A stretch of 64,000 nucleotides of DNA from Candidatus Latescibacterota bacterium (GCA_965208835.1 OZ242358.1:4416001-4480000); one strand, 5' to 3'; shown: positions 1,495 to 64,000, counted from the stretch's first letter. Numbers and translations: made by a program. Notes: generated by a model not told the origin, from the sequence alone.

Positions 1495-2529
1495 ATGATC
1501 GTCAGAAATAGGTTCGTCCGTGGAACGTTGATTTTGGTGGCACTTGCGTTCACAGGCATTGCCTTTGTTTATGCCCAGACTGCGGCGGATGCTGATTTTG
1601 ACGGAGATGGGACGATTGGATTCAGCGATTTTCTGGCGTTTGCGGGCAAATTTGGGACCGCTCACGGCGATGGTAGGTACGAGGCGAAGTACGATCTGAA
1701 TGGCGACGGACAGGTGGGTTTCTCGGATTTTCTCGCCTTCGCGGGATTTTTCGGCCGGACAGTACCGCCCACGCAGGTGCCCGTAAGCGAGGGCTTCGAC
1801 CTGTACGGAGACAACAACAGTCCATTTGGGATTACGTATGCAAACGAGAGGCTGTACGTCGTATCAATCAGCTTGAATGACGATGGTCCGGTTGCCGGGA
1901 CTCAGAAGGTGTATGCGTACAGTCTTTCCGGTCAACGCGACGTAGCGTCTGAATTTGAACTTAACACAGACATATTCCCGTACGGGATCGCCTACGCCGA
2001 TGGCCGGTTTTACGTCACGGCGACGGCCATTGACGGAACCGCAGGCTTGGAGAAGGTATACGCATTCCGTCCCGACGGCCAACGCGATGCGTCATACGAC
2101 CTAAATATTCCCGGTGACGATGATTTCCCGTTAGGGATCACGTACGCCAATGACAGGTTCTACGTGGTCGTGAATCCAGACGACACCGACATGACGCGGG
2201 TATTGGCATACAGCCGATCGGGTCCGCGTGACGGGTCTTCCGACTTCAACCTGTTCGATGAGACTGTGGAAAATGCGCTGCCAAATGGGATCGCCTACGC
2301 TGGTGACCGGTTCTACGTAGTCACCGTCAGTCTGGAAGTGGATGGTCCCGCAGGCGGCGCGCAGACGGTATTTGCCTACTCGCGTACAGGAATGCGTGAT
2401 GCGGCTTCCGACTTCGAACTGGATGCCGATAATTCGAATCCCTTCGGGATCGCGTATGTCAATAACCGGTTCTACGTGGTCGATACCATGGACAACAGGA
2501 TTTACGTGTATCGGGTATACAGGGAATGA
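1495..2529 (+). CDS. Secreted protein: type-A dockerin-like module + NHL-like beta-propeller repeats
   Basis: AAGGAG RBS, signal peptide, DFDGDGTIGFSDF...DLNGDGQVGFSDF, then repeats PxGIxYAxxRFYVV...VYAYSxxGxRD. Confidence 0.85.
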   Translation: MIVRNRFVRGTLILVALAFTGIAFVYAQTAADADFDGDGTIGFSDFLAFAGKFGTAHGDGRYEAKYDLNGDGQVGFSDFLAFAGFFGRTVPPTQVPVSEGFDLYGDNNSPFGITYANERLYVVSISLNDDGPVAGTQKVYAYSLSGQRDVASEFELNTDIFPYGIAYADGRFYVTATAIDGTAGLEKVYAFRPDGQRDASYDLNIPGDDDFPLGITYANDRFYVVVNPDDTDMTRVLAYSRSGPRDGSSDFNLFDETVENALPNGIAYAGDRFYVVTVSLEVDGPAGGAQTVFAYSRTGMRDAASDFELDADNSNPFGIAYVNNRFYVVDTMDNRIYVYRVYRE

Positions 2530-2667
2530 GCATGAAGCAGAGATTCGTCTCTGAGGCGAACTTCCCAAGAGAATGCCGTCTGGATCCTTGACCTAAAAGC
2601 GATCAATGATCAAGAATCCACCACGACCCGCTATACAACCCGTGGAAATCAAAAAAGGGAGGAAGCT

Positions 2668-5565
2668 ATGTTGACCTTTCGACGTCTCGCCTTAATTCTC
2701 GCGCCCCGAAAATTCCGATTACGGCAGGCCCCGTGTCTTGCAATCGTATGCATCGTTCTGAGTTTGTATCCCGTTCGAGTGGCATCCCAGGACGGTTTTT
2801 CTCTCTCTCCGGACGTGGATGGGGCAGCCGGGGACCAGGGTGTGACGACAGCGGAGGTCTCGCCGGAAGCAACCGTCTCCATCCAGATTTTCGGCAGCAA
2901 CCTGAGCCAGTCCCAGGGCGTTTCCGTTCGATTCGCGTACGACAGCGGCCAGGTCGTTTACGACGGCGCGGACGCGGGCGACGTGTATCCCAACGCTCAG
3001 ATCCTTGTGGAAACTGGCGTCAATCCGACGTCGGTCACCCTGGGCATCGCATCGCTGGGCAGCCGTGCCGAAACATCGGCGGGCCTCGTCGGTACGGCCC
3101 GCTTTCGCACCTCGGCTGCATTTACCGGTACGACTGTTCGGATCCTGAAAGCCGTACTGGGGGGTGGCGGCCAACAGGACACCCTGAAGATGAACGTCGG
3201 TATCGAGTTGAATCCTGCATCCGCGGGGCCATCTACCGACTTCGACGCCGATGGTATGGTTGGTTTTTCTGACTTTCTGCAGTTCGCGTCGCAATACGGG
3301 ACGTCGGTGGGCGACGGGCGCTATGACGCCCGGTTCGACCTGGATTCCGACGGTTCGGTGGGCTTCGCCGATTTTCTCGTGCTTGCGGGTCAGTTCGGAC
3401 AAGAGGTAGCGCAACCGCCACCCGAGGAATCAGACCGTGACGCGCTGGTCGCGCTGTACAACGCCACGGACGGGTACAACTGGACCACGCAGACCAACTG
3501 GCTGACGAACAGCCCGATCGACACATGGTACGGGGTTACGGTGAAGGACGGTCGGGTCACCGGTCTCGTCTTGACGGAGAACAATCTGACGGGCGAGGTA
3601 CCGGTCATGCTGGGAGACCTCGCCTCCTTGGACAGCCTGATACTCCGGAAAAACGAGTTGAGTGGTGATATACCTCCGAAGCTGGCCGATCTATTAAACC
3701 TTACGAAACTTGACCTATCGATCAACCAAATGAGCGGTAACATTCCGCCAGAATTGGGCAACCTTGTCAACCTTGTTAATTTGCAACTTGACCGAAATCA
3801 ACTCACTGGGACGATTCCGCTCCAATTGAGCAATCTTCGGAACCTAAGAGTACTTTGGCTGTGGCAGAATCCCATACACGGTCGCATTCCTACAGAGCTG
3901 GGGAAGTTGGAAAACCTGGAACTTCTTGGTCTCGCGTTCACTGAGTTGAGCGGACCCATTCCGGCGGAATTGGGAAACCTGCGCAACCTGGAGGTTCTGC
4001 TATTGGCCATAAACAGGCTGAGTGGTTCGATACCGTCGGAACTAGGAAACCTGATCAAACTGAGGTCACTGCAACTCCACAACAATCAACTTAGTGGGTC
4101 AATCCCTGAACAGTTGGGTAATCTTGGAAACCTTCAGAGGCTGTTTCTGGCCCAAAATCAGTTAACCGGCTCGATTCCAGAAGAGTTGGGTAACCTTGCC
4201 GAACTGACCGGGCTATCGCTTAACTTTAACCAGCTGAGTGGTGCAATTCCGGTCACATTGGGTAAACTCGAACGGTTGGAATTTCTCTGGATGAACAATA
4301 ATCGGTTGAGCGGCTCGATTCCTGAAGAATTCGGGAACCTTTCAATGTTGGTGTCCCTGGGATTGGGAAACAACGAATCCCTGATGGGTGTGCTTCCTCA
4401 GAGCCTTACGGGATTGACTGAATTGGAGAGCTTCTCCTTTGACGGGACGTCGTTATGCGCGCCGATAAACGAAGCCTTCCAACTTTGGCTAGCGGGAATC
4501 GAATCCAGAAGTGGAGCGAACTGCGCACCGGAATCCCAGCGCGAAGCGCTCGTTTCGTTCTACAATTCAACCGACGGAGACAACTGGACGAACAACACCA
4601 ACTGGCTGAGCGACGCCGATATTTCCACCTGGCACGGCGTTGGTGTTTCGAACGGTCTGGTTACGCATCTGGACCTGAGAAACAACAATCTGAAGGGTGA
4701 ACTTCCAGTTGAACTGGGCAATTTGACCAGTCTGGAGAGCCTGCACCTTCCTGAAAACTCATTGACGGGACGGATTCCCGTCGAATTGGGGAGCCTGACG
4801 AATCTTACTCGCTTCTGGCTGTACGATAACCAGTTAATTGGTGCGATTCCATTAGAATTGGGGAATCTGTCCAATTTGGTCACTCTGGACCTTAGGGTCA
4901 ATCAACTGAGCGGAACGATCCCGGACGAACTGGGCCATCTTTCGAAACTCGATTACCTGGGACTTGCCGAGAATCAACTGAGCGGTCAGGTACCGGTGGT
5001 GTTGGGTCAGCTGACTCACCTTATGGAGTTGCATCTTACCAATAATGAGTTGTCCGGCAGCATTCCCGCCGCGCTGGGCAATCTCTCCAACCTCAGATAT
5101 CTGGGTCTTGCCCACAATCAGTTGAGGGGCGGGATTCCCAGGGAATTAGGCGGCTTGGACAACCTGCAGGTGCTGTATACAAGCAAGAATGAATTGAGTG
5201 GTTCGATCCCAACAGAATTGGGCAATCTGTCAAATCTCAGAGAGCTGCTGTTGTGGGACGATGGATTGACCGGTACGATTCCCGCGGAATTGGGGAACCT
5301 GGACAACATTGAAGTGCTGCATCTTCCCGACAATTTGTTGAGTGGTCCAGTCCCAACAGAATTGGGCAATCTCTCCAACCTGACGGAACTGAAGGTCGGC
5401 GGCAATCAATTAAGTGGCGCTTTGCCGCAGAGCCTGACCGGGCTGGCAAATCTGAGGATCTTCGAATTTGGTGGCGACGGCAGCCTATGTGCGCCGCGCA
5501 GTGACGCCTTTCAGGCGTGGCTTCAGGGTATAAGAGAGACCAGCGGTCCGAATTGCCCGCAATAG
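2668..5565 (+). CDS. Secreted protein: cohesin-like domain + type-A dockerin-like module + two plant-like LRR blocks
   Basis: GGGAGG RBS. A ~140-aa beta domain (VRFAYDSGQVVY, AGLVGTARF) resembles cohesin. Then DFDADGMVGFSDF...DLDSDGSVGFADF and two LRR blocks, each with an ALxxxYNxTDG-W N-cap. Confidence 0.85.
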   Translation: MLTFRRLALILAPRKFRLRQAPCLAIVCIVLSLYPVRVASQDGFSLSPDVDGAAGDQGVTTAEVSPEATVSIQIFGSNLSQSQGVSVRFAYDSGQVVYDGADAGDVYPNAQILVETGVNPTSVTLGIASLGSRAETSAGLVGTARFRTSAAFTGTTVRILKAVLGGGGQQDTLKMNVGIELNPASAGPSTDFDADGMVGFSDFLQFASQYGTSVGDGRYDARFDLDSDGSVGFADFLVLAGQFGQEVAQPPPEESDRDALVALYNATDGYNWTTQTNWLTNSPIDTWYGVTVKDGRVTGLVLTENNLTGEVPVMLGDLASLDSLILRKNELSGDIPPKLADLLNLTKLDLSINQMSGNIPPELGNLVNLVNLQLDRNQLTGTIPLQLSNLRNLRVLWLWQNPIHGRIPTELGKLENLELLGLAFTELSGPIPAELGNLRNLEVLLLAINRLSGSIPSELGNLIKLRSLQLHNNQLSGSIPEQLGNLGNLQRLFLAQNQLTGSIPEELGNLAELTGLSLNFNQLSGAIPVTLGKLERLEFLWMNNNRLSGSIPEEFGNLSMLVSLGLGNNESLMGVLPQSLTGLTELESFSFDGTSLCAPINEAFQLWLAGIESRSGANCAPESQREALVSFYNSTDGDNWTNNTNWLSDADISTWHGVGVSNGLVTHLDLRNNNLKGELPVELGNLTSLESLHLPENSLTGRIPVELGSLTNLTRFWLYDNQLIGAIPLELGNLSNLVTLDLRVNQLSGTIPDELGHLSKLDYLGLAENQLSGQVPVVLGQLTHLMELHLTNNELSGSIPAALGNLSNLRYLGLAHNQLRGGIPRELGGLDNLQVLYTSKNELSGSIPTELGNLSNLRELLLWDDGLTGTIPAELGNLDNIEVLHLPDNLLSGPVPTELGNLSNLTELKVGGNQLSGALPQSLTGLANLRIFEFGGDGSLCAPRSDAFQAWLQGIRETSGPNCPQ

Positions 5566-6035: not shown

Positions 6036-6036
6036 C

Positions 6037-8004: not shown

Positions 8005-9183
8005 ATGAAGTGGAAACGATCGTCGAATCTCGCGCTGTTATTGGTCGCAGTTCTGTCAGCGCAGGAAAGCTACGCCCAGACACCACTGAAAGGGCATACG
8101 GATTGGGTCAATTCCGTGGCGTTTTCACCCGATGGGAATCTGCTCGCTTCCGGTTCGGACGATGAAACGGTCAAGTTGTGGGACGTGGTGAAAGGAGAAT
8201 TGGTTGCTACACTGGAGGGACACAGCGGCTCGGTCAATTCCGTGGCGTTTTCGCCGGATGGAAAACTGGTCGCTTCCGGATCGGACGATAGAACGGTCAA
8301 GTTGTGGGACGCGGCGACGCACAAAAACATAACCACCTTTGAAGAAACCGCTTGGACGGAAGCAGTGGCGTTCTCGCCCGATGGACAGTTGCTGGCCTCC
8401 GGTTCGTGGGATGACGCGGTTACGCTGTGGGACGTGGCGACACACACAAGCGTCGCAACCCTTGAGGAATCGGACGCGGTCTTTTCATTGGCGTTTTCTC
8501 GGGATCTGCTGCTCGCTACCGGATTGGACGAAGGTCCGGTCAGGCTATGGGACGTGGCCAGGAGAGAACCCGTCGCTACCCTGGAACAGCATACGGACGA
8601 CGTTAATTCTGTGGCGTTTTCACCCGATGGGAAACTGCTGGCTTCCGGTTCGGATGATGGAGTGGTCAAACTATGGGACGTGGCTGAAAGAAAGATCAGT
8701 GCGTCTCTTGAACAGGTCGAAGGTCACAGTTTGGACGTTGTCCACTCAGTGTCCTTTTCACCGGATGGGACGCTGCTGGCTGCGGGTGGTTCCTGGGACG
8801 GTGCGGTGAGGCTGTGGGACGTAGCGACACGGAGAATTGCTGCAACCCTTGAAGGAAATTCAGATGTCGTCTTTGCAGTGGCGTTCTCGCCGGATCCCAA
8901 GGTGCTGGCTTCCGGTACTGCAGACGGCACATTGCAGATATGGGACATCTCTTCCAATTCCACGTCTCGGCCTCCGACTCCACCTCAAGATCCGACTGCC
9001 GACTTCGACGGCGACGGGACGGTCGGATTCGGTGACTTTCTGCTGTTTGCCGCCGCATTCGGTCGAAGTCAAAGCGATGCCGGATACGATGTGCGGTTCG
9101 ATCTGGACGGGAACGGCGCGATCGGGTTTGGCGATTTTCTGATTTTTGCGGGCGCGTACGGGAACAAAACATCTTCTAATTGA
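8005..9183 (+). CDS. Secreted WD40 protein with C-terminal type-A dockerin-like module
   Basis: GGGAGG RBS, signal peptide, 7 GH...AFSPDG..LASGS.D..VKLWD-type repeats, Pro linker, DFDGDGTVGFGDF...DLDGNGAIGFGDF. Confidence 0.92.
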   Translation: MKWKRSSNLALLLVAVLSAQESYAQTPLKGHTDWVNSVAFSPDGNLLASGSDDETVKLWDVVKGELVATLEGHSGSVNSVAFSPDGKLVASGSDDRTVKLWDAATHKNITTFEETAWTEAVAFSPDGQLLASGSWDDAVTLWDVATHTSVATLEESDAVFSLAFSRDLLLATGLDEGPVRLWDVARREPVATLEQHTDDVNSVAFSPDGKLLASGSDDGVVKLWDVAERKISASLEQVEGHSLDVVHSVSFSPDGTLLAAGGSWDGAVRLWDVATRRIAATLEGNSDVVFAVAFSPDPKVLASGTADGTLQIWDISSNSTSRPPTPPQDPTADFDGDGTVGFGDFLLFAAAFGRSQSDAGYDVRFDLDGNGAIGFGDFLIFAGAYGNKTSSN

Positions 9184-9420: not shown

Positions 9421-11673
9421 ATGGCTTCCGTGAAATCTGCATTGTACGTTTTCTCCGTGTTGTTGTTGGTCCTCACGCTTCACGTGGCTGCGGGTTCCAA
9501 TACAGACGATAGTCGCACAACAACCGATGGTGTCGCCGTAAACACCAACGCCGACGACACCGCGTCTATACCCGACTTCGACGGCGACGGTACGATCGGC
9601 TTCGGGGATTTCGTGATCTTCGCGGGTGCGTTCGGGTCACACCGGGGCGATCAGGGTTATGATGCCAGGTTCGATCTCAATGGCGACGGGGAGATAGAAT
9701 TCGCGGACTTTGTGATCTTCGCCCAGAACTTCGGCAAGGCGGCGCCATCGCCTGTCGTTTCGATCCCCGACGCTATTCTGCGCTCGGCGATTGAGGATGC
9801 CCTGGACAGGGCCGTTGGTGCAGCGATCACTGTCGCTGACATGGCGACATTGGATAGTATCCAGTCGGTGAATTGGGGTAGAGCGGGCATCAGGGACTTG
9901 ACCGGCTTGGAGTATGCTACCAGCCTGGCATGGCTGGCGCTTCAAAAAAACGACATCACGAATCTATCGCCGTTGGCAGGCCTGACCAACCTGAATCATC
10001 TCGACCTTTGGAGCAACCGGATCCGGGACATCTCGCCGCTGGCGGGCTTGACCAATCTGACATGGCTGAGCGTTGGGGGTAACCACCTCACGGACGTGTC
10101 TCCGTTAGCAGGCTTGACCAAGCTGACCTATCTGCATGGTTCGTCGAACTCCATCGTGGACATCTCGCCGCTGGCAGGCTTGACCAATCTGACTGGATTG
10201 TACCTCAGTGGGAACTCCGTCACGGACATCTCGCCGCTGGCAGGTTTGGACAACCTGTCCCGTCTGTGGCTGATGGACAACTTTATTACGGACATCTCAC
10301 CGCTGGCAGGTTTGGAAAACCTGTGGGATTTGAACCTTGGGTACAACCCCATCGTCGACATTTCGGCTGTTTCGGGCTTGGTCAACATGCTTTGGCTGGA
10401 ACTTGAGGCCACCGACGTCACGGATATCTCGGCGCTGTCAGGCCTGACCGGGATGCGTAAGCTCGTCCTGGGATTCAACTTCATCACGGATATATCGGCG
10501 CTTCCCGGCCTGACCAACCTGTCGGAATTGGACCTTCGGGGAAACCCCCTGGGGCGGTCCTCCATCGACGTTCACATTCCGGCCCACGAACGCAACGGGG
10601 CTACGGTAACCTTCAACTCGCTGCGCGAGGGCGACTTTGATATCGAACTCGTCTTCCTCGAGTCGTTCACTGAGCGCCATAAGAGGGTATTCCGATACGC
10701 GGCCCGTCGGTGGATGGCGGCAGTTATGGAGGACCTGCCGGACTATGTATTTACGCAAGGCTGGTCCGGGCAGTGCGGCGGTCAGTCGTATGAGATCTCT
10801 GCTGGCGAGCGCATAGACGACCTTCGGATCTACGTGATCAGCTTCGATTTAGAAACCGCAAAAGATGCCCGATATCCCTCTGCCGCGTGGGGTGGCCCAC
10901 ACCTGCTGCGAGACACCAACCACCTGCCCGTCGTAGGATGTATGGGGTTCGGTTTTTATAGTGTCGGCGCAGTATTGGCGAACGTAGTTCCCCACGAGAT
11001 CGGGCACGTTCTGGGATTTACCAGTGGGGTATGGGATAGATTTGGCTACTTCCAGAACCCGCCGGACGGCGACCAGCACTTTACCGGTCCACTGGCGATC
11101 ACTGCTTTCGACGACGCGGGCGGACGGGAATACGCAGGCGCCAAGGTACCGGTGGAGTCCGGTTACCATTGGAGGAGTACCATTCTGGATGCCGAACTGA
11201 TGGGGGGAATGCAGCTATGGCGGCCCTCCGGTGCGGCGCTGAGCGCGATCACGGTCCAGTCCTTCGCGGATCTCGGGTATGGCGTCGACGTCACGCAAGC
11301 AGACCCATATACCCTGCCGAGCGCTGCTTCAGGCGCGAAGATCGCCGTTTCCACACTTGCCGTTCCGGGATTTGGTATTAACGGGTACCGGCCGGAGACC
11401 TTCACGCAATCGGGCGCGGATCGGTCCGGCCAGGAATCGATCCGACGGAGCCTGCCCTTGGGTCCCGCAGACGGCCGCGCCGGTCACCTGGAGAGTGGCG
11501 AGCGGTTGCGGGGCCCCGGCATCACGTTTGATCTCGCGAGAAACCAACAAGTGTGGGACACGGCACTGCCCACGCACACGGCGCCTGAGCTGACCTGCGG
11601 CGCCGAGCCGATGAATGAACCAATTTACGTAGTGGATCCGCAGGGGCGTATCGTGCGAACGATAAACCGGTGA
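9421..11673 (+). CDS. Dockerin-like + internalin-type LRR + leishmanolysin (M8)-like zinc peptidase
   Basis: AGGAGG RBS, dockerin, IPDxxLR cap, 22-aa DISPLAGLTNL repeats, HEIGHVLGF...HW...ELM. Confidence 0.88.
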   Translation: MASVKSALYVFSVLLLVLTLHVAAGSNTDDSRTTTDGVAVNTNADDTASIPDFDGDGTIGFGDFVIFAGAFGSHRGDQGYDARFDLNGDGEIEFADFVIFAQNFGKAAPSPVVSIPDAILRSAIEDALDRAVGAAITVADMATLDSIQSVNWGRAGIRDLTGLEYATSLAWLALQKNDITNLSPLAGLTNLNHLDLWSNRIRDISPLAGLTNLTWLSVGGNHLTDVSPLAGLTKLTYLHGSSNSIVDISPLAGLTNLTGLYLSGNSVTDISPLAGLDNLSRLWLMDNFITDISPLAGLENLWDLNLGYNPIVDISAVSGLVNMLWLELEATDVTDISALSGLTGMRKLVLGFNFITDISALPGLTNLSELDLRGNPLGRSSIDVHIPAHERNGATVTFNSLREGDFDIELVFLESFTERHKRVFRYAARRWMAAVMEDLPDYVFTQGWSGQCGGQSYEISAGERIDDLRIYVISFDLETAKDARYPSAAWGGPHLLRDTNHLPVVGCMGFGFYSVGAVLANVVPHEIGHVLGFTSGVWDRFGYFQNPPDGDQHFTGPLAITAFDDAGGREYAGAKVPVESGYHWRSTILDAELMGGMQLWRPSGAALSAITVQSFADLGYGVDVTQADPYTLPSAASGAKIAVSTLAVPGFGINGYRPETFTQSGADRSGQESIRRSLPLGPADGRAGHLESGERLRGPGITFDLARNQQVWDTALPTHTAPELTCGAEPMNEPIYVVDPQGRIVRTINR

Positions 11674-29969: not shown

Positions 29970-30519
29970 TGTCATGCTGAGATGGACGCGACGCTGAAGA
30001 AGTGTCCGCGCACAAGGTCGTCTACAGAGACCATATACGACACGTACAATCGAGAAGACGGGAGATTCTTCGCTCCACTCTGAATGACATGTCTTGAAAT
30101 AACCATTGGTGAAATGTATCGGTCAGGTGTTCGCCCCCACTGTCATCCTGAGGACTTGCCCTGCTTGTGCTGAGCTTGTCGAAGCAAGCCCTCGGTCACT
30201 GATCCGTTGTCCTGCTTGTGCTGAGCCTGTCGAAGCAAGCCTGCCGAAGGATTGTCGAAGGGTCGAAGGGTGCCCGCCAGGCCGACGAAGGATCTACTGC
30301 GACGCCGCATCCATCAAAAGCGTCTGTCACACTCTGACCGACCTGACAGGCAGCACGAATGCGGCCCCTTCAAGCGAAGCCATCCGTCGATTGTCGCCGT
30401 AATCACTCCCCCCTTGAGGGGGAGTCGCAGAAGCCGAGCCGTCCCCTGAGCTTGTGGTCTCTGAGCTTGCTTGCATTGAGCTTGTCGAAAGGGCCGGCGA
30501 CGGCTGATGCGGTGGGGGG
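29970..30519 (+). repeat. Cluster of REP-like elements (GTCAT(C/G)CTGAG, GAGCTTGTCGAAG, type D)
   Basis: Inverted TGTCATGCTGAG...CTCTGAATGACA, a tandem CCTGCTTGTGCTGAGC(T/C)TGTCGAAGCAAGCC, and a type D element at 30401-30519. Confidence 0.7.
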
Positions 30520-30524
30520 TTAAG

Positions 30525-38066: not shown

Positions 38067-38286
38067 CCGAACCGGCGCGCCTAGGCGGAGCTCGAATTGT
38101 TGGGCGCCGTTGCCAGCGCCGTTTGCTGCGAGACTCGGACGACGCGCACCAAGAACAAAAATCTACAGCTTGGAGAGTTCCTCGTCGGCGGCGTCAAGGG
38201 TCTCAGATTTTCTGCGTAAACGCAACGGTCAACAACTGCACAAAAGCCAACCAACAGACACCTGTCGCAGGGGAGGAGGCCGAACA

Positions 38287-52440: not shown

Positions 52441-52641
52441 TCACGATCCGCCACCGCCGCGCGCGGCAGCGTCGCTTTCGATATACCCCGACAGGATCAC
52501 GAAATCCGCGTAGTTGATCGTCCCGTCGCCGTTCAGGTCCATCCGCCGGTCATACCCCGCGTCCGACCTGCGCAGACCCATCATCTTATTGAACAGCTTC
52601 GCGTCCGCGGCGTCGCGCCTCCCGTCGCCGTTGAAGTCGCC
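52441..52641 (-). pseudogene. Orphan type-B dockerin-like fragment
   Basis: GDFNGDGRRDAADAKLFNKMMG...GGGGS*, identical to the C-terminus of 61602..64000 and directly preceded by an in-frame TAA. Confidence 0.85.
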
Positions 52642-55187: not shown

Positions 55188-55935
55188 TCAATCTCCCGAT
55201 GTTCCGGAATTTCCGGATCCGCCGTCTCTGGCAGACGCGTCGCGCTCGATATGCCGCGACAGGATCACGAAATCCGCCCAGTTGATGATGCCGTCGCCGT
55301 TCATGTCCATCCGTCTGTCAAACCCCTCATCGCCCGACCGCAGCCCGATCTTTTCATTCAATAACTTCGAGTCCTCCGCGTCGGCCCTGCCGTCACGGTT
55401 GAAGTCGCCTGACGAGATCATGATGAAGAACAGACGCTCTTCCGTCCGGCCTTCGCTATCGGTCACGGTCAGCGTCACGTCGAAGTCGCCGTGCTCCGTG
55501 GGCGTGCCCTCGATCTCGCCGTCGTCGTTGACGTCCAATCCCGACGGCTGCCCCGACAGCGAATAGGTATAGGGCGGCGCGCCGCCGGAGACGTCCACCG
55601 GTCCTTCCGAAAACGACGCGTTGAGCTCACCGTACATGTCGTTGATCGGCCCGATGACGATGGGCTCCGCCACGCGTATCCAGAACGAACTGCTGGACGC
55701 GTTGCTTCGGGCGTCGGTGACGTACGCGGTGATCTGCCAGGAGCCCACCGCCGGCGGCGAACCGTCAATCTCTCCGTCGGAGGCAATGGAAAGGCCCGCG
55801 GTACTTGCCGTGGGCGACAGACGGTACGTGTAGGGCGGGCATCCGCCGGCGGCCCTCACCTGTATCGAACCGATGGGCTCGCCCTTCGATGCCGCCACGT
55901 CCGAGATGGACCCGACCGACAGCGGCGGGCAGGCA
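55188..55935 (-). pseudogene. 5'-truncated Ig (He_PIG-like) x2 + type-B dockerin-like gene
   Basis: Begins CPPLSVGSISDVAAS with no signal peptide; GGxPPYTY...GxP repeats; DFNRDGRADAED...DMNGDGIINWADF. Confidence 0.7.
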
Positions 55936-56001: not shown

Positions 56002-56177
56002 GGGCAGACAGGAATGTCCGCCCCACCCTAATAAACACATCTTCAGCGTGAGGCGGGCGCCCACAAGGGACGCCCCTACAGTGCCAACTTGGCCGGGTGA
56101 AAACGTGCCGCGAATGGGTCATTCGCGGCACGGCAGAGGTGTTGCAAATTGCGCCGCCAATGTCGCATTTTGCGACA
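56002..56177 (-). repeat. Composite intergenic repeat, copy 3
   Basis: Same modules as the other three copies. Confidence 0.85.
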
Positions 56178-56191
56178 GTTCGAAAGCCACC

Positions 56192-58520
56192 TTACGCACT
56201 CTGTCCAAAGGCGCCGGCGAAGATGAGAAAATCCGAGAAGCCTACGATACCGTTGCCGTCCAGGTCGAAGCGCACGTCATATCCGTCGTCGCCCTGACCG
56301 AGTCCGAACTTTTGCCCGAACATGACAAAGTCTGCGAAATCCACCTGCCCGTCGCTGTTGATGTCTGGATTGCCGTGCGCGTGCGCGATGAACACCGCCG
56401 GGGCCAGGCCCGCCGCCCGCGCCTGCACGGTGTTCAGGCCCGCCGCGGAACCCAGCGTCAGCGTCGTGGCGGCGTTACCGCTCGTATCGGCCCTGGCGGC
56501 CCTTGTCGATACCGCGCCGCCGCCTTCGGTGACGCTGAACAAAACCGGTATGCCCGGAAACGGGTCTCCGTGCTGGTCCCGAACCGACACCACGAAAGGC
56601 GCCCCTAACGGCACGCCCGCAGCGCCGCGCTGCCCATCGCCGGACACGATGGTGACGCGCTCGGGACGCTGCCGCACCCACTCCGACGTGTCCCACAGCT
56701 CTATACTGCCCTCGGTGGTTCCCACGGCCAGCACGGACCCGTCGTGCCAATAGGCCAAAGACGTGGGGGACCCAGGGTGCGGCAGCCGCGCGTAGACCTT
56801 CCCCGTGGCGGCGTCGCGCACGATGACCGTGCCCTCGACGCCACCGCTGGCCAGCGTCTCGCCGTCCGGAGAAAACGTCAGAACGTTGACACTCGGCGCA
56901 TGCACGATCTTCATTTCGGCGACCGTATTTCGCGTGGCCACGTCCCACAACGCGATCACATCCGAGGCCGCAGCCAGGGTCCTGCCGTCCGGCGAGGGCG
57001 CAATCCTATTGATACCCGTCACTCCAGGCCGCACGAGGACGCCTCGTACTCTACGCGCGGCACAGTCCCACAGCCGGATGGAACTGTCGTAGGAAGCCGA
57101 CGCCAGAATACTGCCGTCGGGAGAAAACAGCAAATGCTGGACCGGTCGCGAATGCCCTTTGAGGACGCCCGTCATCTCGCCCGTGGCCGCGTCCCACGTC
57201 TTCATCTTGTCCTCATCGAAAAGGGATGCCGAGATCAGCGTCACTCCGTCGGGTGAGAACGCCAGCGCAAGGTTCCCCCACGTATCCCCCAGCGTGACCG
57301 TGCGTTTCCGGGACGCCACGTCCCACAGCCCGATCCAGCCGGTCTCCGTCCCTGCCGCCAGCGTCGACCCGTCAGGCAACAACGTCAGTGACCGGATATC
57401 GCCTTCAATCCCACGCAGCGTGGCCAACTCCTCGAACGTCTTCGTATCCCACAGCCGGACGGTCGTGTCTGCCGATCCCGATGCCAGCATCGACCCGTCC
57501 GGCGAGAGCGCGAGCTCTACGGGTCCTGTGCCGTACCCGTCCAGCGTGGCCACGTGATACGGCGACCGCTGCGCGAACGTCCAACCCGCAAATGCGCCTG
57601 GGTTGCCGCGCCTGTCGACCGCCCAGAATTGGATAAAATGGGACGGTGGGTCCGACAACGTTGTGGCATGTGGGGAAATCCTCCCGTCGTACTCATACTC
57701 GATGAAGGCCTCCTTCTCACCGGAGAATACGCGGCAATCCTTGATTCTGACGATAAAGTCGTTGGCAAAGGGGGGGAACAAGGATCACCAGCTGATGCAG
57801 GCCGTGCGGCGCTTCGACCTTCAGACGCACGGTGATGCGCTCCGAGCCCTCGTCATACCACAGGGGCGACAGCAGCTCCACGGTGGGGTTTGTGTCCCAG
57901 TCCCACCCGAGGGGCACCTGAGCGTTGAAGAACGGCTGCATAGACAGGAACGCCGCGCTGCAAGCCGACAGACGTTCACTGCCGCGGAAGATCGCAAGGA
58001 TATAACCCCCTTCGCGATGGTCGTGCCAGAGCATCCCGAAGGCGTGCGCCAGCTCGTGCGCGGCCACCCAGAACTCGAAACCGCCGGGGACGACCGCCCA
58101 CCCTCCATCCTTACCCCCAGCCGCCCTGCCTGCCGGGGCGCCAAAAGGACCCAGCGCGTCACCCCAGCGATTGTCGATCACGACGAACAGGACCACGTTG
58201 TTCGGATCAAACGCCTCCCGGACCTCCCTTTGCACCGTTGTTGTCGTACGGTCGTCATAATAGCGGTCGGCGTGCGCCCCGTCGAGGCGATGCACAACGG
58301 GCGCGCCGTTAGCGTCCGCCTCATACCGGAACGTCATGTTCCCGTACCCGTGCGATGCCATCTGCTCTCCGAACCACGCCTGCAGGCGCACGCACCGGTG
58401 CTCGCCCCCGGCAACCGCGGGCGAGCCACTGATCGTCGCGGCAGGCACACACAGCAAGGCCACGATGCATCCCGCCAGAAACGGCAGACCGGACAACCCT
58501 CGATTACCCCTTCCTTGCAT
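56192..58520 (-). pseudogene. HExxH peptidase + WD40 + Big_1 + dockerin gene with a frameshift at a G7 tract and an in-frame N-terminal deletion
   Basis: ORFs 57717..58541 and 56192..57781 join at 57770-57776. The HRCV|RLQAW junction lacks ~50 aa present in the paralogues. Confidence 0.82.
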
Positions 58521-58537
58521 ATCCCGCTCCCTGTCAT

Positions 58538-58780
58538 TCAATCGCCGGATCCACCCGACTCACCCGATCCGGAACTGCCCCGCGCGGCCGCGTCGCTTTC
58601 GATATACCCCGAGAGGATCACGAAATCCGCATAGTTGATCGTCCCATCGCCGTTCAGGTCCATCCGGCGGTCAAAACCCGCGTCCGACCTGCGCAGACCC
58701 ATCATCCTGTTGAACAGCTTCGCGTCCGCGGCGTCGCGCCTGCCGTCGCCGTTGAAGTCGCCCGGCAGGGCGACCGTCAT
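58538..58780 (-). pseudogene. Orphan type-B dockerin-like fragment (could be a small ORF)
   Basis: MTVALPGDFNGDGRRDAADAKLFNRMMG...; homology to 61602..64000 starts at the edge of the REP. Confidence 0.8.
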
Positions 58781-58792
58781 CCTGAACGACGT

Positions 58793-58984
58793 GGACAGAC
58801 AGGAATGTCCGCCCCGCCCTCGCGCCAGCTTCCTGACAGTGCGGGCGCCCACAAGGGACGCCCCTACACGGGCAACGGGTCCGCGTGATCCGGTACCGCG
58901 AATTGCCAATTCGCGGCACGGCAGCGCCGTCGCGATATGCCTCTCATGTGTAGCAAATTGCGTCGAGTGTTGCATTATGCGACA
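58793..58984 (-). repeat. Composite intergenic repeat, copy 4
   Basis: Same modules, plus a possible third degenerate box at 58928-58944. Confidence 0.85.
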
Positions 58985-58998
58985 GTGGGAGGACCATC

Positions 58999-61497
58999 TT
59001 ATACGGACTGCCCGAAGGCGTTCGCCAGGATGAGGAAGTCCGAGAACCCCACCTCACCGTCGCCGTTCAGGTCAAAGCGCGCATCGTAGCCGTCGTCGCC
59101 CTGACCGAGTCCGAACTTTTGTGCGAACACGACAAAGTCGCTGAAATCCACCCGCCCGTCGCTGTTGATGTCTGGATTGCCGTGCGAGTGGGCGCTAAAC
59201 ACCGCTGGCGCCAGGCCCGCTGCCCGGGCCTGCACGATGTTCATCCCGGCCGCGGGACCCAGCGTGAGCGACGTGGCGGCGTTCCCGCTCGTATCGGCCC
59301 CGGCCGACGCCGGCCGCACCTTCCCGCCGCCTTCGGTGACGCTGAACAGGACCGGCATGCCCGGAAACGGGTCGCCGTGCTGGTCCCGCACCGAAACGAC
59401 GAACGGCGCCGGCAGCGCCGTTGCCGCCGCGCCCCTTTGCGCATCGCCGGAGACGAGCGTCACGCGCTCCGGACGCTGCCGCACCCACTCCGACGTGTCC
59501 CACAGCTCTATACTGCCCTCGGTGGTTCCCACGGCCAGCACGGACCCGTCGTGCCAGTAGGCCAAAGATTTGGGGGACCCCGTGTGCGGCAGCCGCGCGT
59601 AGATCTTGCCCGTGGCGGCGTCCCGCACGATGACCGTACCCTCGATGCCGCCGCTGGCCAGCGTCTCCCCGTCCGGTGAAAACGCCATAACGTTGACACT
59701 GGGCGCATGCACCATCTTCATTTCGGCGACCGTATTCCGCGTGGCCACGTCCCAGAACGCGATCACATCCGAGGCCGCAGCCAGGGTCCTGCCGTCCGGC
59801 GACAACGCAATCCTTTTTATACCCTCCTCGCCAGGCCGCACGAGGACGCCTCGTACTCGACGCGCGGGCCAGTCCCACAACCGGATGGAATTGTCGTAGG
59901 AAGCCGACGCCAGAACGCTGCCGTCGGGAGAAAACTGCAGGTGCTCGACCGGTCGCGTATGCCCTTTGAGGACGCCCGTCATCTCCCCGGTGGCCGCGTC
60001 CCACGTCTTCATATTGTCCTCATCGGTAAATGAAGACGACACCAGCGTCGCCCCGTCAAGCGAGTACGCCAGCGCCTGGATCCACCACGTATGCCCTGCC
60101 AGCGTGCCCGTGCGTTTTTGCGACGCCGCGTCCCACAGCCCGATCCAGCCGCTGGCTGTCCCTGCCGCCAGCGTCGACCCGTCCGGCGACAACGCCACCG
60201 CGTAGATTCTCTCATCCCCCACGTCCAGCGTGGCCAACTCCTCATAAGTCTTCGTATCCCACAGCCTGACCGTACCGTCCGTCGATCCCGATGCCAGCGT
60301 CGACCCGTCCGCCGAGAGCGCGAGCTCTACGTAGCGTCCTTCGCCGTGTCCTTCCAGCGTCGCCGCGTGATACGGCGACCGCTGCGCGAACGTCCAACGC
60401 CCGTCTCCTTTATTGCCCTGCTTGTCGATCGCCTTGAATTGGATAAAATGGGACGGCGGGTCCGACAGCGTCGTGGCATGTGGGGAAATCCTCCCGTCGT
60501 ACTCATACTCGATGACGGCCTCGTTCTCACCGGAGAATACGCGGCAATCCTTGATTCTGAGGATAAAGTGGTTCGCAAAGGGGGGTGAAACAAGCATCAC
60601 CAGCTGATGCAGGCCGTGACGCGCCTCGACCTTCAGACGCACGGTGATGCGCTCCGAGCCCTCGTCATACCACAGGGGCGACAGCAGCTCCACGGTCGGG
60701 CTTGCGTCCCAGTCCCACCCCAGGGGCACCTCCGTGTTGAAGAAGGGCTGCACCGACAGGAACGCCGCGCTGCAGGCAGACAGACGTTCACTGCCGCGGT
60801 AGATCCCAAGGATATAATCCCCTTCGCGATGGTCGTGCCAGAGCATCCCGAAGGCGTGCGCCAGCTCGTGCGCGGCCACCCAGAACTCGAAACCGCCGGG
60901 GACGATCGCATCCCCACCATCCTTACCTCCACTCGCGATGCCTCCCGGTGCGCCAAAAGGACCCAGCGCGTCACCCCAGCGATTGTCGATCACGACGAAC
61001 AGGACCACGTTGTTCGGATCAAACGCTTCCCGGACCTCCCTTTGCACCTTTGACGACGGCCTTTCGTCATAATAGCGGTCGGCGTGCGCCCCGTCCAGCC
61101 GGTGCACCACGGGCGCGCCGCTAGCGTCCGCCTCATACCGGAACGTCGTGTACCCGTACCCGTGTGCTTCCATCTGCTCTCCGAATAACCGCTGCAGGCG
61201 CACCATCATCGTCTTCATCTTATCCACCACCGACTGCCGGTACGGGCGGTCTTTCGGCAGAAAGTAGATCATCCGCACCGTCCGCGGCTTACCCACGTTC
61301 GGTTCCTCCGCCGCAGCCTTGCCCGCAACCTGTGCGTCCTCGCCTCCCCACCCCTCCTCTTTCAACACCACGCAGTGAAACACGCTGTCAGACCGCACGG
61401 ACGATGCCAACGCCGTGGTCGGAAGCCACAGCATGCCAACAAAGCACGACCCCACCGTCATCCAAGGCATCAGACGCAATACGCACCGTCGCTGCAT
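58999..61497 (-). CDS. HExxH zinc peptidase + WD40 + Big_1-like Ig + type-A dockerin-like
   Basis: GGGAGG RBS, signal peptide, HELAHAFGMLWHD, WD40 repeats, DINSDGRVDFSDF. Confidence 0.9.
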   Translation of the reverse strand: MQRRCVLRLMPWMTVGSCFVGMLWLPTTALASSVRSDSVFHCVVLKEEGWGGEDAQVAGKAAAEEPNVGKPRTVRMIYFLPKDRPYRQSVVDKMKTMMVRLQRLFGEQMEAHGYGYTTFRYEADASGAPVVHRLDGAHADRYYDERPSSKVQREVREAFDPNNVVLFVVIDNRWGDALGPFGAPGGIASGGKDGGDAIVPGGFEFWVAAHELAHAFGMLWHDHREGDYILGIYRGSERLSACSAAFLSVQPFFNTEVPLGWDWDASPTVELLSPLWYDEGSERITVRLKVEARHGLHQLVMLVSPPFANHFILRIKDCRVFSGENEAVIEYEYDGRISPHATTLSDPPSHFIQFKAIDKQGNKGDGRWTFAQRSPYHAATLEGHGEGRYVELALSADGSTLASGSTDGTVRLWDTKTYEELATLDVGDERIYAVALSPDGSTLAAGTASGWIGLWDAASQKRTGTLAGHTWWIQALAYSLDGATLVSSSFTDEDNMKTWDAATGEMTGVLKGHTRPVEHLQFSPDGSVLASASYDNSIRLWDWPARRVRGVLVRPGEEGIKRIALSPDGRTLAAASDVIAFWDVATRNTVAEMKMVHAPSVNVMAFSPDGETLASGGIEGTVIVRDAATGKIYARLPHTGSPKSLAYWHDGSVLAVGTTEGSIELWDTSEWVRQRPERVTLVSGDAQRGAAATALPAPFVVSVRDQHGDPFPGMPVLFSVTEGGGKVRPASAGADTSGNAATSLTLGPAAGMNIVQARAAGLAPAVFSAHSHGNPDINSDGRVDFSDFVVFAQKFGLGQGDDGYDARFDLNGDGEVGFSDFLILANAFGQSV

Positions 61498-61601
61498 AAC
61501 CGGATCCTCCCTTTTGTCTCATCCCAATGTCACGTCGACAACAGGCTCTCCTTCGTGTTCAAACGGCTTCCGAGACAGGCGTCATCCGTGCCGATCGCAG
61601 G

Positions 61602-64000
61602 TCACGATCCACCGCCGCCGCGCGCGGCCGCGTCGCTCTCGATATACCCCGAGAGGATTACGAAGTCCGCATAGTTGATCGTCCCGTCGCCGTTCAGGTC
61701 CATCCGGCGGTCATACCCCGCGTCCGACCTGCGCAGACCCATCATCTTATTGAACAGCTTTGCATCCGCGGCGTCGCGCCTGCCGTCGCCGTTGAAATCG
61801 CCAGGCAAAGCGACGGTCATTGTAAAGGACGCTTCCTCCTGGCGCTTGCCCTGGTCTTTCACGATCACCGTGACCGTGGCGCTGCCCAACTGCGTGGGCG
61901 TGCCGCCGATACTCCCGCCCGAAGAAATGGTGATGCCCGCGGGGGCGCTTTCCAACGAATACGTGTACGCCCCCCTGCCTCCTGATGCCGACACCTGGAT
62001 CGGGTCCATGTCCAGCTGCCACGTCACCACCACGTCCGATATGGACCCGATCGACAGCGCCCGGCTGACGTACATGGTAAAGTCGGTTTCAGCCGTTTCA
62101 GGTCGAGCGTCGGTGACGGTCACCGTAATGATGAACGTGCCGAGGGCGGTTGGCGCGCCACTGATAACACCCGTCGACGTGCTGGACGAGATTCCGGCGG
62201 GTCTACCAGACGTTGAGAACGTGTACGGCGTTTCACCACCCGAGGCGGACGGTGTAATCGAAGAAATCGTCTTATTGACGTCTGCATCCACGTCGTCAAT
62301 GTCCGCAATCGTTAGCGGCGGGACAATGACCCTGATGATGAACGACTTCTCGCCCGTGCAGCCCGACGCGTCCGTCGCCTCCACCGTCACGTTGAATTCG
62401 CCGCGAACTCCGGGCGCCCGACCGCCGATGCCACCGCCGGCGTCTACCTCCACCCACCCGGGGCCGCTCTTCCTCCGGTACCTATACTGGCCCCTGCCCC
62501 CCGATGCGCTCGCCGTGATCGATGGCAAATCCTTTTTCACCTCCACCGTCACGTCCGACAGCCCGCCCACCGTAATCGTCGGACACGCCACGGTGACTTT
62601 GATCGTCCCGGCGCCGGTATTCCGTTGCTCATCCGTCGCCGTTACGTTGAAGGTGTAGTTGCCGGGCGTCGCGTCTGCAGACGGCGCAACGGTGTATACG
62701 TTGCTCGCCGTCTTTCTCGCCCACGCCAGCCCGACAGGGTTCCCGAACGTCTTCGCTCCGCATCCCCCCGTCGCACTCACGCTCACCGTTGCCGTCCCAC
62801 CGGCCTTCACCGTCACCGGATCCGGGCTCTGCGCGACCGTAATCGCCGGACAGTTCACCGTGACGTTGATCACCCCGGCGCCGGTGTTCCCTTCCGCGTC
62901 CGTCGCCGTCACGCTGAAGGTGAAATTGCCGGGCGACGTGTCCGCAGGCGGCGCAACGGTGTATTGATTGCTCGCCGTCTTTCTCGCCCACGCCAGCCCG
63001 ACAGGGTCCCCGAACGACTTCGACCCGCATCCACCCGCCGCACTCACACTCACAGTTGCCGTCCCGCCGGCCTTCACCGTCACCGGATCAGGGCTCTGCG
63101 TGACCGTAATCGCCGGACAGTTCACCGTGACGTTGATCGCCCCGGTGCCGGTATTCCCTTCCGAGTCCGTCGCCGTCACGCTAAAGGTGAAATTGCCGGG
63201 CGACGTGTCTGCGGGCGGGGCCACGGTGTATTGGCTGTCCGTCCCCTGTTTTTTTGTCACCCACGCCAGCCCGACGGGGTCCCCGAACGACTTCGACCCG
63301 CATCCCCCCGTCGCACTCACGCCCACCGTCGCCGTCCCGCCAGCGGTCGCCGTCACCGGATCGGGGCTCTGCGTGACCTTAATCGCCGGACAGTTCACCG
63401 TGACGTTGATCGCCCCGGCGCCGGTATTCCCTTCCGAGTCCGTCGCCGTCACGTCAAAGGAGTAGTTACCGGGCGACGTGTCTGCGGGCGGGGCCACGGT
63501 GTATTGGTTGTCCGTCCCCGGTTTTTTCGTCACCCACGCCAGCCCGCCCGGATCCCCGAACGACTTCGACCCGCATCCCCCCGTCGCACTCACGCTCACC
63601 GTCGCCGTCCCGCCGGCCTGCACCGTCACCGGATCGGGGCTCTGCGCGACCGAAACGGCCGGGCATACAACCTCGACCGTGAATGAACCTGTACCCGGAC
63701 ACTCGTTCGCGTCCTGAATGCCGACGTTCACGGTATGCGTGCCAGACGCGTCAGGCGCGCTCGTCACGGAGATCGTGCCCCCGGCGTTGATCGTCACCCA
63801 ATCCGGCCCGCCCGTCTTCGTAAACGTATGGTCCGGCTTACCTCCCGACGCCGTCGCCGCGGCCGTCTCGGAGCCGCCTGCCTGCACCGTCACCTTGCCC
63901 GGACCCGCGTATCCAATTGAAGCACACGTCACTCTCACTTTGATTGTCCCCGTGCCGGTATTCCCTTCCGCGTCCGTCGCCGTCACGCTAAAGGTGTAGT
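61602..64000 (-). CDS. Large Ig-repeat (adhesin/scaffold-like) protein with C-terminal type-B dockerin-like module; 5' end outside the window
   Basis: Tandem ~90-aa CPAIxVxQSPDPVT...GGCG...VTATDxEGNTG repeats, He_PIG-like domains, GDFNGDGRRDAAD...DLNGDGTINYADF. Confidence 0.9.
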   Translation of the reverse strand, partial: YTFSVTATDAEGNTGTGTIKVRVTCASIGYAGPGKVTVQAGGSETAAATASGGKPDHTFTKTGGPDWVTINAGGTISVTSAPDASGTHTVNVGIQDANECPGTGSFTVEVVCPAVSVAQSPDPVTVQAGGTATVSVSATGGCGSKSFGDPGGLAWVTKKPGTDNQYTVAPPADTSPGNYSFDVTATDSEGNTGAGAINVTVNCPAIKVTQSPDPVTATAGGTATVGVSATGGCGSKSFGDPVGLAWVTKKQGTDSQYTVAPPADTSPGNFTFSVTATDSEGNTGTGAINVTVNCPAITVTQSPDPVTVKAGGTATVSVSAAGGCGSKSFGDPVGLAWARKTASNQYTVAPPADTSPGNFTFSVTATDAEGNTGAGVINVTVNCPAITVAQSPDPVTVKAGGTATVSVSATGGCGAKTFGNPVGLAWARKTASNVYTVAPSADATPGNYTFNVTATDEQRNTGAGTIKVTVACPTITVGGLSDVTVEVKKDLPSITASASGGRGQYRYRRKSGPGWVEVDAGGGIGGRAPGVRGEFNVTVEATDASGCTGEKSFIIRVIVPPLTIADIDDVDADVNKTISSITPSASGGETPYTFSTSGRPAGISSSTSTGVISGAPTALGTFIITVTVTDARPETAETDFTMYVSRALSIGSISDVVVTWQLDMDPIQVSASGGRGAYTYSLESAPAGITISSGGSIGGTPTQLGSATVTVIVKDQGKRQEEASFTMTVALPGDFNGDGRRDAADAKLFNKMMGLRRSDAGYDRRMDLNGDGTINYADFVILSGYIESDAAARGGGGS

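Follow-up and report, generated by a model that had tools for sequence, protein, structure and literature searches.

A type II-like dockerin module on the repeat proteins of a Latescibacterota genome, with candidate cohesin anchors for their display

The window analysed is a 64,000-nucleotide stretch of DNA from a Candidatus Latescibacterota bacterium (GCA_965208835.1, OZ242358.1:4416001-4480000; genome G000). It contains a series of genes and gene remnants that share a duplicated module, given below with the dockerin positions in brackets.

1..1179, plus strand: 3' part (LRR) of a CohB-dockerin-LRR gene at 4414663-4417179 of G000, with its cohesin and dockerin just upstream of the window
1495..2529, plus strand: signal peptide, dockerin (1582-1770), NHL-like propeller
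2668..5565, plus strand: signal peptide, CohB cohesin fold (2797-3216), dockerin (3226-3414), LRR; candidate adaptor
8005..9183, plus strand: WD40 propeller, C-terminal dockerin (8989-9177)
9421..11673, plus strand: dockerin (9562-9750), LRR, HExxH domain with a weak leishmanolysin M8 match, under cut-off
12702..15515, plus strand: dockerin (12840-13028), LRR, HExxH domain
30507..32753, plus strand: dockerin (30606-30794), LRR, FG-GAP; start at 30525 in the first-pass annotation
33255..35816, plus strand: dockerin (33336-33524), LRR, FG-GAP
38110..40497, plus strand: dockerin (38416-38604), LRR, C-terminal domain without a Pfam match at 1e-5; previous start 38287
49817..52336, minus strand: HExxH domain, WD40, Ig-like, C-terminal dockerin (49820-50002)
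52441..52641, minus strand: remnant with variant dockerin (52462-52641); 66 residues match the end of the 61602 gene exactly
52920..55166, minus strand: HExxH domain, WD40, C-terminal dockerin (52923-53105)
55188..55898, minus strand: 5'-truncated He_PIG Ig, variant dockerin (55230-55418)
56192..58541, minus strand: frameshifted paralogue of 58999; the frame shifts within a C7 run near 57773
56192-57781, minus strand: 3' ORF of this frameshifted gene, WD40 and dockerin (56195-56377)
58538..58852, minus strand: remnant with variant dockerin (58583-58771)
58999..61497, minus strand: HExxH domain, WD40, Ig-like, C-terminal dockerin (59002-59184)
61602..64000, minus strand: 3' part of a 2,510-codon Ig-repeat (He_PIG) ORF with a terminal variant dockerin (61623-61811)

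A genome-trained HMM recovered one copy of the duplicated module in each of the 12 ORFs to which the first-pass annotation had assigned it (E 1e-27 to 1e-23), and the placements described there – N-terminal, internal or C-terminal – were found as claimed. Four further variant copies in the window had been overlooked. Three of these (52462-52641, 55230-55418 and 58583-58771) are remnants of the 3' end of the 61602 gene, and the fourth, at 61623-61811, scores 33.3 bits against Pfam Dockerin_1, above the cut-off. Genome-wide, the same HMM found the module in 87 ORFs, with no matches among 46,586 ORFs in a reversed-ORF control. Both halves are present in 82 of the 87, and 5 are half-modules.

A signal-like N-terminus, originally attributed to all 12 ORFs, is present in each except 56192, which is the 3' part of a frameshifted gene that starts near 58541; 49817 was missed by a crude signal-peptide heuristic and is signal-like by eye. 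The NHL-like, LRR, WD40 and FG-GAP cargo described for the window was recovered, and the peptidases correspond to HExxH motifs in 9421, 12702, 49817, 52920 and 58999. As stated at first pass, there is no glycoside hydrolase among the window ORFs scanned (for five WD40 proteins, among the best 25 families listed), and neither glycoside hydrolase nor heparinase families are among the matches listed for 13 window proteins. An Rfam search of the window gave no match.

The dockerin assignment is borne out by the PDB, in which the best sequence matches of the module profile are type II dockerins. The first is the dockerin 2y3n_B (E=1e-14), aligned over positions 3-61 with no gap, followed by the dockerins 4u3s_B (8.8e-12) and 4wi0_B (8.3e-11) and then by calmodulin (1.6e-9), whose EF-hands fall about 7 bits under the second dockerin match. 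The F-hand loop of a dockerin has Asp or Asn at positions 1, 3 and 5 and Asp at position 12; a calmodulin-type EF-hand pair is helix-loop-helix twice, and position 12 of its loop is usually Glu. Both halves of the module follow the pattern D-x-D/N-x-D/N/S-G, and every aligned row (100%) has Asp at position 12. In the AF2 model of 2668, the dockerin has two helices (161-168 and 194-202) with a short one in the middle, and loop 1 is not preceded by a helix. A calmodulin-type EF-hand pair was rejected because of this missing helix and the Asp at position 12 of both loops. A wide fold search with the 2668 model returned a list filled by the cohesin, with the dockerin part barely covered. Pfam Dockerin_1, a type I model, has 44 genomic matches, 37 of them above the cut-off, and is passed by 3 of the 12 named modules and by each of the four variant copies of the window. 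By its sequence and modelled fold, the module belongs with the type II-like dockerins and is not an EF-hand pair.

A cohesin-like domain had been proposed in 2668. Despite 13.4 bits for its CohB against Pfam Cohesin (cut-off 24.1), the AF2 model of the 2668 head (pLDDT 83.6) has cohesins as its best matches. The top 16 rows of a VIA structure search are cohesin entries (best 2vo8, Z 13.8, rmsd 2.8, 130 aligned); the weakest of them has Z 11.0 and the first pilin Ig domain Z 10.9. The best Foldseek matches are CohI9-X-DocII fragments, and many homologues of the head carry a precomputed PF00963 match. Type II systems carry a non-binding X-module ahead of the dockerin, and CohB and a further class, CohC, are located in this position, 0-10 residues ahead of the dockerin. 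By this analogy, CohB and CohC may be structural elements instead of sockets.

There are seven copies of another class, CohA, in the genome, all outside the window and each directly ahead of a T9SS CTD; one is interrupted by an in-frame stop. Three of the seven pass the Pfam Cohesin cut-off, all nine PDB matches of the CohA profile are cohesins, and a fold search with the CohA model found a resemblance to type II and NagJ cohesins. The CohA-CTD architecture is found in 114 of 120 CohA homologues. All three CohA-type or neighbouring CTD proteins examined pass the TIGR04183 cut-off, and two CohA proteins (29.7 and 29.8 bits, cut-off 23) have both a signal peptide and a type A CTD. A complex prediction for CohA 4104533 (residues 22-176) with the 1495 dockerin and two Ca2+, from alignments of 82 rows for CohA and 44 for the dockerin, gave ipSAE values of 0.16 and 0.15 (mark 0.32), a result that counts neither for nor against binding. 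A simple EF-hand pair that does not bind cohesin, or a genome devoid of cohesin folds, had been named as findings that would speak against the first-pass reading; the module is dockerin-type and cohesin-fold proteins are present in the genome, so that neither applies.

The "cellulosome-like complex" proposed at first pass is not supported in that form. No ORF in this genome has more than two cohesin-like domains, and the probable anchors are the single-cohesin CohA-CTD proteins, not 2668. It is very unlikely that a true cellulosome-like particle is assembled on 2668-like proteins by head-to-tail chaining of cohesins and dockerins. The CohB-dockerin and CohC-dockerin adaptors could form such chains, and two to eight tandem CohB precede the dockerin in 38 of 120 homologues of the 2668 head (the maximum of eight is in P0121), but a single CohB is found in 80 of the 120, a genome-wide cohesin census found no multi-cohesin scaffoldin, and no CBM is among the families listed for the 63 dockerin ORFs scanned. 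The cargo, too, is not mainly cellulases and hemicellulases, as it would be in a cellulosome: 50 of the 72 dockerin ORFs lying wholly or partly outside the window were scanned, and these include one GH5 and three heparinase II/III-like lyases. The description of the cargo as repeats and proteases with no glycoside hydrolases thus stands within the window and fails outside it.

Cohesin and dockerin genes are often neighbours. Four of the five small CohA genes are within 2.4 kb of a dockerin, while 17% of random positions are within 10 kb of one, and a separate dockerin gene is present at 35 of 56 CohA loci of relatives. A variant dockerin lies immediately ahead of CohA in five of five rows of one clade (99/99 support), the only clade in which this pairing was seen. 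For the most conserved CohA gene (the 2828074 clade), the nearest dockerin is 58 kb away. All 45 order genomes have both CohA and dockerins, with at least 23 dockerin matches each, and CohA is absent from 11 of 12 dockerin-negative genomes, though kin genomes in these counts are not independent of one another.

The dockerin might instead act without cohesins, through Ca2+-stabilised self-association or envelope binding or as a signal for a T9SS barrel, with the cohesin folds as Ig-like spacers or X-modules. Its helices are strongly hydrophobic and symmetric, eight PorV-like matches in at least seven ORFs could be cargo-specific partners, and 13 phylum genomes (including G083, with 32) have dockerin matches and no CohA match at 1e-5. 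There are also 87 modules to about 15-18 cohesin-like domains in G000, but cellulosome producers normally have more dockerins than cohesins. A protein made of a cohesin and an export tail only, such as CohA-CTD, makes poor sense as a spacer, and the gene linkage and the pairing of the variant dockerin with one CohA clade also argue for cohesin binding. A cohesin-independent role is, on this evidence, quite unlikely.

Repeat cargo is strongly associated with the dockerin. Across the genome, 19 of 21 LRR ORFs and 14 of 15 WD40 ORFs have the module, and none of these has a CTD. HmuY is also among the dockerin cargo. The crude heuristic predicts a signal peptide in 77 of the 87 dockerin ORFs, against 450 of 1,058 background ORFs. 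The same scan found a single lipobox-like pattern, so that a lipoprotein route for the cargo looks unlikely from the sequences. NCBIfam assignments to Xop effectors and internalins were rejected as LRR cross-matches far under the cut-off. A common alternative C-terminal signal was also rejected, as only six non-C-terminal dockerin proteins share a short terminal motif (by eye).

SprA, the T9SS translocon, passes its cut-off in G000 and likewise in 47 of 47 order genomes. PorV-like (1e-29) and PorU-like (5e-93) genes are present, both under cut-off. The motor subunit GldM was not found in G000, nor was TpsB (ShlB), and for each of them a control search likewise gave no signal. Secretins, T2SS ATPases and ushers were searched for in the genome (a single contig, 97.8% complete) and none was found. 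A secretin is also absent from all 14 other genomes of the genus and all 20 of genus g4; CsgG has one weak, partial match. No CTD is present in 85 of the 87 dockerin ORFs, and none of the 16 module-bearing window ORFs has a type A CTD. With none of these three components recovered, CTD-less cargo would depend on a still hypothetical route to be displayed at the surface.

These absences fit a system confined to the periplasm or the vesicle lumen, in which dockerin proteins bind cohesins and stay periplasmic or exit inside outer-membrane vesicles; Cache and FGE-sulfatase-like cargo could plausibly be periplasmic. Against this, part of the cargo is of a mostly outward-facing kind (2,500-residue Ig/fn3 chains, heparinase-like lyases, HmuY and internalin-like LRRs), and CohA, the main cohesin class, has a CTD for outer-membrane export. 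A periplasmic or vesicle-lumen system is for these reasons unlikely.

In a Cache-like family, seven paralogues have a C-terminal CTD and one has a dockerin. A giant Doc-CohA-CTD protein has orthologues in four relatives that end 3-4 residues past the dockerin, and in each of these a paralogue or neighbour beside the truncated gene retains CohA-CTD. The lack of a CTD in 85 of 87 dockerin ORFs, the missing secretin and T2SS ATPase, the tagging of LRR and WD40 proteins and the family with either a CTD or a dockerin together raise the possibility that the dockerin is a piggyback tag. As a surrogate outer-membrane export signal, it would bind cargo to a periplasmic CohA-CTD carrier, pass with it through SprA and keep the cargo displayed. 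This reading is consistent with the near mutual exclusion of dockerin and CTD, the absence of secretin and the presence of SprA in 47 of 47 genomes, and is put forward tentatively, as possible and still somewhat doubtful. T9SS exports folded and very large proteins and requires a folded CTD, according to the available text of a paper that treats piggybacking only for peroxisomes and Tat (PMC9251779), and no description of T9SS piggyback export was found in the literature searched.

The broader model, which is probably correct in outline, treats the dockerin as a universal tag, carried by about 85 Sec-exported proteins that are docked through cohesins to T9SS-exported CohA-CTD anchors in a mixed coat. 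It builds on the identity of the module, the cohesin folds, the CTDs, the SprA translocon, the co-occurrence and the gene linkage. The signal peptide would take cargo across the inner membrane, and the dockerin would fold on two Ca2+ ions and then be captured by a cohesin. The main sockets would be the small single-cohesin CohA-CTD proteins with a type A CTD, exported by T9SS and probably anchored on the outer surface; how CTD-less cargo would come to cross the outer membrane is where piggybacking might enter. Each anchor would hold one cargo protein, or one cohesin-dockerin adaptor (2668, CohB-Doc-LRR, for example) offering a further socket. The predicted outcome is a coat in which LRR, WD40, FG-GAP, Ig and HExxH-protease proteins are mixed with a few polysaccharide enzymes. 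With the dockerin on most LRR and WD40 proteins and cohesins on CTD proteins, the former are probably clipped onto the surface.

A close parallel is clostridial type II anchoring, in which a single-cohesin anchor captures a dockerin-bearing protein, as predicted here. The alignment of the module with the 2y3n_B dockerin of B. cellulosolvens is gap-free, and both cohesin classes match clostridial folds (A. cellulolyticus ScaA X-Doc 4u3s/4wi0; C. thermocellum CipA 3kcp/4fl4 and SdbA 2bm3). Clostridial cellulosomes are anchored by SLH or sortase, whereas the host here is Gram-negative and has a T9SS CTD in this role; the dockerin is on about 85 mostly non-cellulolytic proteins, and this genome has no scaffoldin with many cohesins. 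A cellulosome-like complex has been predicted, not demonstrated, in Ca. Stygibacter (Cloacimonadota), and the available text describes dockerin proteins with signal peptides, some of them peptidases, together with a cohesin protein whose conserved C-terminal domain, cited to a T9SS review, would serve surface attachment (PMC8542988). It also describes one 3,755-aa tandem-cohesin/CBM scaffoldin and a few hydrolases (PMC8542988), in contrast to the single-cohesin anchors, adaptors and large repeat-protein repertoire found here. The "planctosome" of freshwater Planctomycetes is likewise genome-predicted, a non-cellulolytic hierarchy of anchor, adaptor and peptidase with single cohesins; its anchor, unlike CohA-CTD, is no T9SS substrate but a lamin-tail-domain protein, and the available text mentions no large LRR/WD40 cargo (PMC6461901).

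Sponge-associated Latescibacterota have abundant eukaryote-like repeat proteins (LRR, NHL, WD40, ankyrin), and share the phylum label and repeat classes with the relatives found here, as far as the available text goes (PMC12993501). The terms cohesin, dockerin, cellulosom-, type IX and T9SS do not occur in its main text, which thus leaves the display of the repeats undescribed; cohesin and dockerin are also absent from the main text of PMC4454575. No description of a cohesin-dockerin system in Latescibacterota, and no account of how their repeat proteins are delivered to or retained at the surface, was found in the literature searched. Here, one module tags most LRR and WD40 ORFs, and a defined anchor class is present in all 45 other order genomes searched, which makes the question of display testable with small recombinant domains although the organism is uncultured. 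If there is only docking after export, the system would extend a kind already predicted in Cloacimonadota and Planctomycetes. If piggyback export is true, it would be a new mode of T9SS cargo recognition and a natural, possibly orthogonal set of cohesin-dockerin pairs for surface display, with the export and display of almost the entire LRR/WD40 repertoire of the organism resting on a small number of carriers.

The Candidatus Latescibacterota genome, a single 5.18-Mb contig that is 97.8% complete, encodes the duplicated module in 87 ORFs, one apiece, according to a profile trained on the genome. Both halves are present in 82 of these and five are half-modules; a reversed ORF set, used as a control, gave no matches. 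All 12 window ORFs in which the first-pass annotation had seen the module do carry it, and the same profile places 16 copies in the window.

The module is a type II-like dockerin. Among solved sequences, the best match of a 44-row module profile is the dockerin in 2y3n, a type II complex (E 1e-14, ungapped), followed by the ScaA X-dockerins 4u3s and 4wi0 and then by calmodulins at 1.6e-9. Position 12 of both loops is Asp in every aligned row, and the AF2 model is loop-helix, short helix, loop-helix, without the entering helix. Pfam Dockerin_1 matches 44 places in the genome (37 above cut-off), but just three of the 12 named modules reach that cut-off. Seven modules have a Cys on each side, a pairing that would be compatible with an oxidising compartment and adjacent termini. 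Four further copies in the window are of a variant type that has lost the F-x-D-F pattern from the first helix, and whose first match is also 2y3n_B. They and their surroundings are as follows.

C-terminal end of a 2,510-codon Ig-repeat ORF at 61602: one variant module copy
49.8–61.8 kb: three variant copies, as remnants in a tandemly duplicated block
49817–61811, minus strand: the tandem duplication block, with three near-copies of an HExxH-WD40-Ig-dockerin gene and one more distant paralogue

The units of the block have 80–87% nucleotide identity to each other, and between the gene copies lie, in alternation, remnants of the 3' end of the Ig-repeat gene that carries the variant dockerin; this layout suggests a hot spot of recombination where cargo is reshuffled. 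The gene whose 3' half is ORF 56192 switches frame within a C7 run near 57773 (minus strand), where a paralogue has an interrupted run – either an assembly error or phase variation. Signal-peptide-like N-termini had been claimed for all 12 ORFs; this 3' part has none of its own. By a crude heuristic, 77 of the 87 module ORFs in the genome score as having a signal peptide, compared with 450 of 1,058 other long ORFs; it misses 49817, whose N-terminus looks signal-like by eye.

A cohesin-like domain had also been proposed at the N-terminus of ORF 2668. Its Pfam score is only 13.4 bits, and its model (pLDDT 83.6) is closest to cohesins by both VIA and Foldseek: the top 16 VIA rows are cohesin entries (2vo8 at Z 13.8, rmsd 2.8, 130 residues), and the first pilin follows at Z 10.9. 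A census of the genome found three cohesin classes. CohB (three ORFs including 2668) and CohC (five domains in four ORFs) always lie directly N-terminal to a dockerin; the two classes are related (hhalign probability 90%). CohA has seven copies, each directly before a T9SS type A C-terminal domain (CTD); both of the CohA proteins tested score above the TIGR04183 cut-off. All nine PDB matches of the CohA profile are cohesins, and in fold the CohA model resembles type II and NagJ cohesins. Two of the seven are giant dockerin-CohA-CTD proteins; the other five are small and consist of the anchor alone, and a stop codon splits one of these five.

L009:7121–7990 (genome 2404620–2405489): stop-split CohA-CTD gene with one in-frame TAG, dockerin genes on both sides

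By eye, N-terminal domains resembling cohesins were also seen directly before the dockerin at L009:1478 and L009:9057, and in a CTD protein at L012:2306–3853. These two or three extra heads, which the three cohesin profiles pick up barely or not at all, are possibly a fourth class.

The cell probably uses CohA-CTD anchors to keep dockerin cargo on its outer surface. Each anchor would retain one cargo protein, and adaptors such as 2668 would extend it optionally, a mode similar to type II anchoring in clostridial cellulosomes. The cellulosome-like complex first envisaged failed on scaffoldin and cargo – no ORF in this genome has more than two cohesin-like domains – and we consider a chained, cellulosome-like particle very unlikely. 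Among 120 homologues of the 2668 head in relatives, 80 are CohB-dockerin, 38 have 2–8 tandem CohB domains and two are CohC-CohB-dockerin. Two of the relatives' proteins, P0121 and P0122, have eight and seven tandem CohB domains, then a dockerin, then LRRs; from sequence, they would be scaffoldin-like adaptors of a kind absent from this genome.

The CohA-CTD layout is found in 114 of 120 CohA homologues. Genomes with CohA relatives carry the label Candidatus Latescibacterota or Gemmatimonadota. Of 121 phylum genomes searched, 109 have the module and 97 have CohA, counts that include kin and hence are not independent. Each of the order's 45 other genomes has both, with at least 23 modules (at most 52 matches were scored per genome), and 11 of the 12 module-negative genomes lack CohA. 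Thirteen module-positive genomes also gave no CohA match. A cohesin-independent role of the module is distinctly unlikely. Four of the five small CohA genes are within 2.4 kb of a module and the fifth is 58 kb away; 17% of random positions are within 10 kb of one. In relatives, 35 of 56 CohA loci have a separate dockerin gene. In a CohA tree of 65 rows, none omitted, a clade with 99/99 support lies directly behind a variant dockerin gene in five of five rows, which counts as one event and suggests a private pair. The module/cohesin system is a real feature. No description of such a system in Latescibacterota was found in the literature searched, supplements aside, and neither cohesin nor dockerin occurs in the main text of two papers on the phylum (PMC12993501, PMC4454575). 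Two other papers predict non-cellulolytic systems similar to this one, in Ca. Stygibacter (PMC8542988) and as the 'planctosome' (PMC6461901).

The genome has roughly 24–25 CTD ORFs, and these include just two of the 87 module ORFs. SprA is present, PorV-like and PorU-like genes score below cut-off, and a GldM search found no match, its control also being silent. About 4 kb downstream of the PorU-like gene come CohA 4104533 and a cluster of 11 module genes. No secretin, T2SS/T4P ATPase or usher was found in searches with positive controls, nor did the secretin loci of two relatives match the genome by tblastn. Across the order, SprA is in 47 of 47 genomes and secretins in nine. Most genomes of the smaller genera have secretins; in the two best-sampled genera none was found in any of the 35 genomes (this one, 14 others of its genus and 20 of the other genus). 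According to part of one paper, T9SS transports folded and very large proteins and requires the CTD (PMC9251779), which makes it plausible that CTD-less cargo crosses bound to a CohA-CTD carrier. Such piggyback export is not described in the literature searched, and we put it forward as a doubtful possibility. Two natural swaps are compatible with the dockerin taking the place of a CTD. Seven paralogues of a Cache-domain protein with a terminal module carry a CTD (the closest has 39% identity over 305 residues), and orthologues of a dockerin-CohA-CTD giant at four loci in relatives (L062, L066, L067 and L070; 61–68% identity) end 3–4 residues past the dockerin, probably through one event. Neither swap tells piggyback export from periplasmic retention; a periplasmic or vesicle system is unlikely.

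Several window genes lie outside the dockerin set.

6043–7128, minus strand, and 20259–21416, plus strand: two DDE_3/HTH transposases, which we take to be IS630-like
11933, 15775, 17419, 18905, 27053 and 36543, plus strand: six ORFs with a common N-terminal helical-looking motif

After the first transposase comes an orphan LRR remnant (7195–7632), which shares 82% identity with the last part of the gene that stops at 1179. A pattern search found the six-ORF motif nowhere else in the genome. None of the six has a dockerin or CTD, and several run on into repeats without a Pfam match; 27053 has ankyrin repeats.

The NHL-like, LRR, WD40 and FG-GAP cargo reported for the window was recovered, along with Ig. 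By motif count across the genome, the module is on 19 of 21 LRR ORFs and 14 of 15 WD40 ORFs, none of which has a CTD; the two ankyrin ORFs have neither. An HExxH motif, in 20 of the 87 module ORFs, marks putative proteases; 9421 matches M8 below cut-off. The C-terminal domain of 38287 (39220–40494, plus strand) has no Pfam match at 1e-5, and its His-Gly...Cys pattern is, we presume, reminiscent of clostripain/caspase-type proteases. Six dockerin proteins (genome 1252169, 1256859, 1290964 and 4079891; window 9421 and 12702), five with HExxH, share a short beta-like terminal motif that resembles part of the T9SS CTD and is absent from all non-dockerin ORFs over 150 aa. The family scan beyond the window covered 50 of the 72 module ORFs that lie there in whole or in part; 16 of the 50 had no family at 1e-7. 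The rest include one GH5, three heparinase II/III-like proteins, one subtilase, one matrixin, one HmuY, three FGE-sulfatase-like proteins, and Cache, LDLR-B, fn3 and Ig proteins.

L076:134–2893, L086 and L085: dockerin-bearing heparinase II/III-like lyases and a GH5

These lyases and the GH5 may target host glycosaminoglycans.
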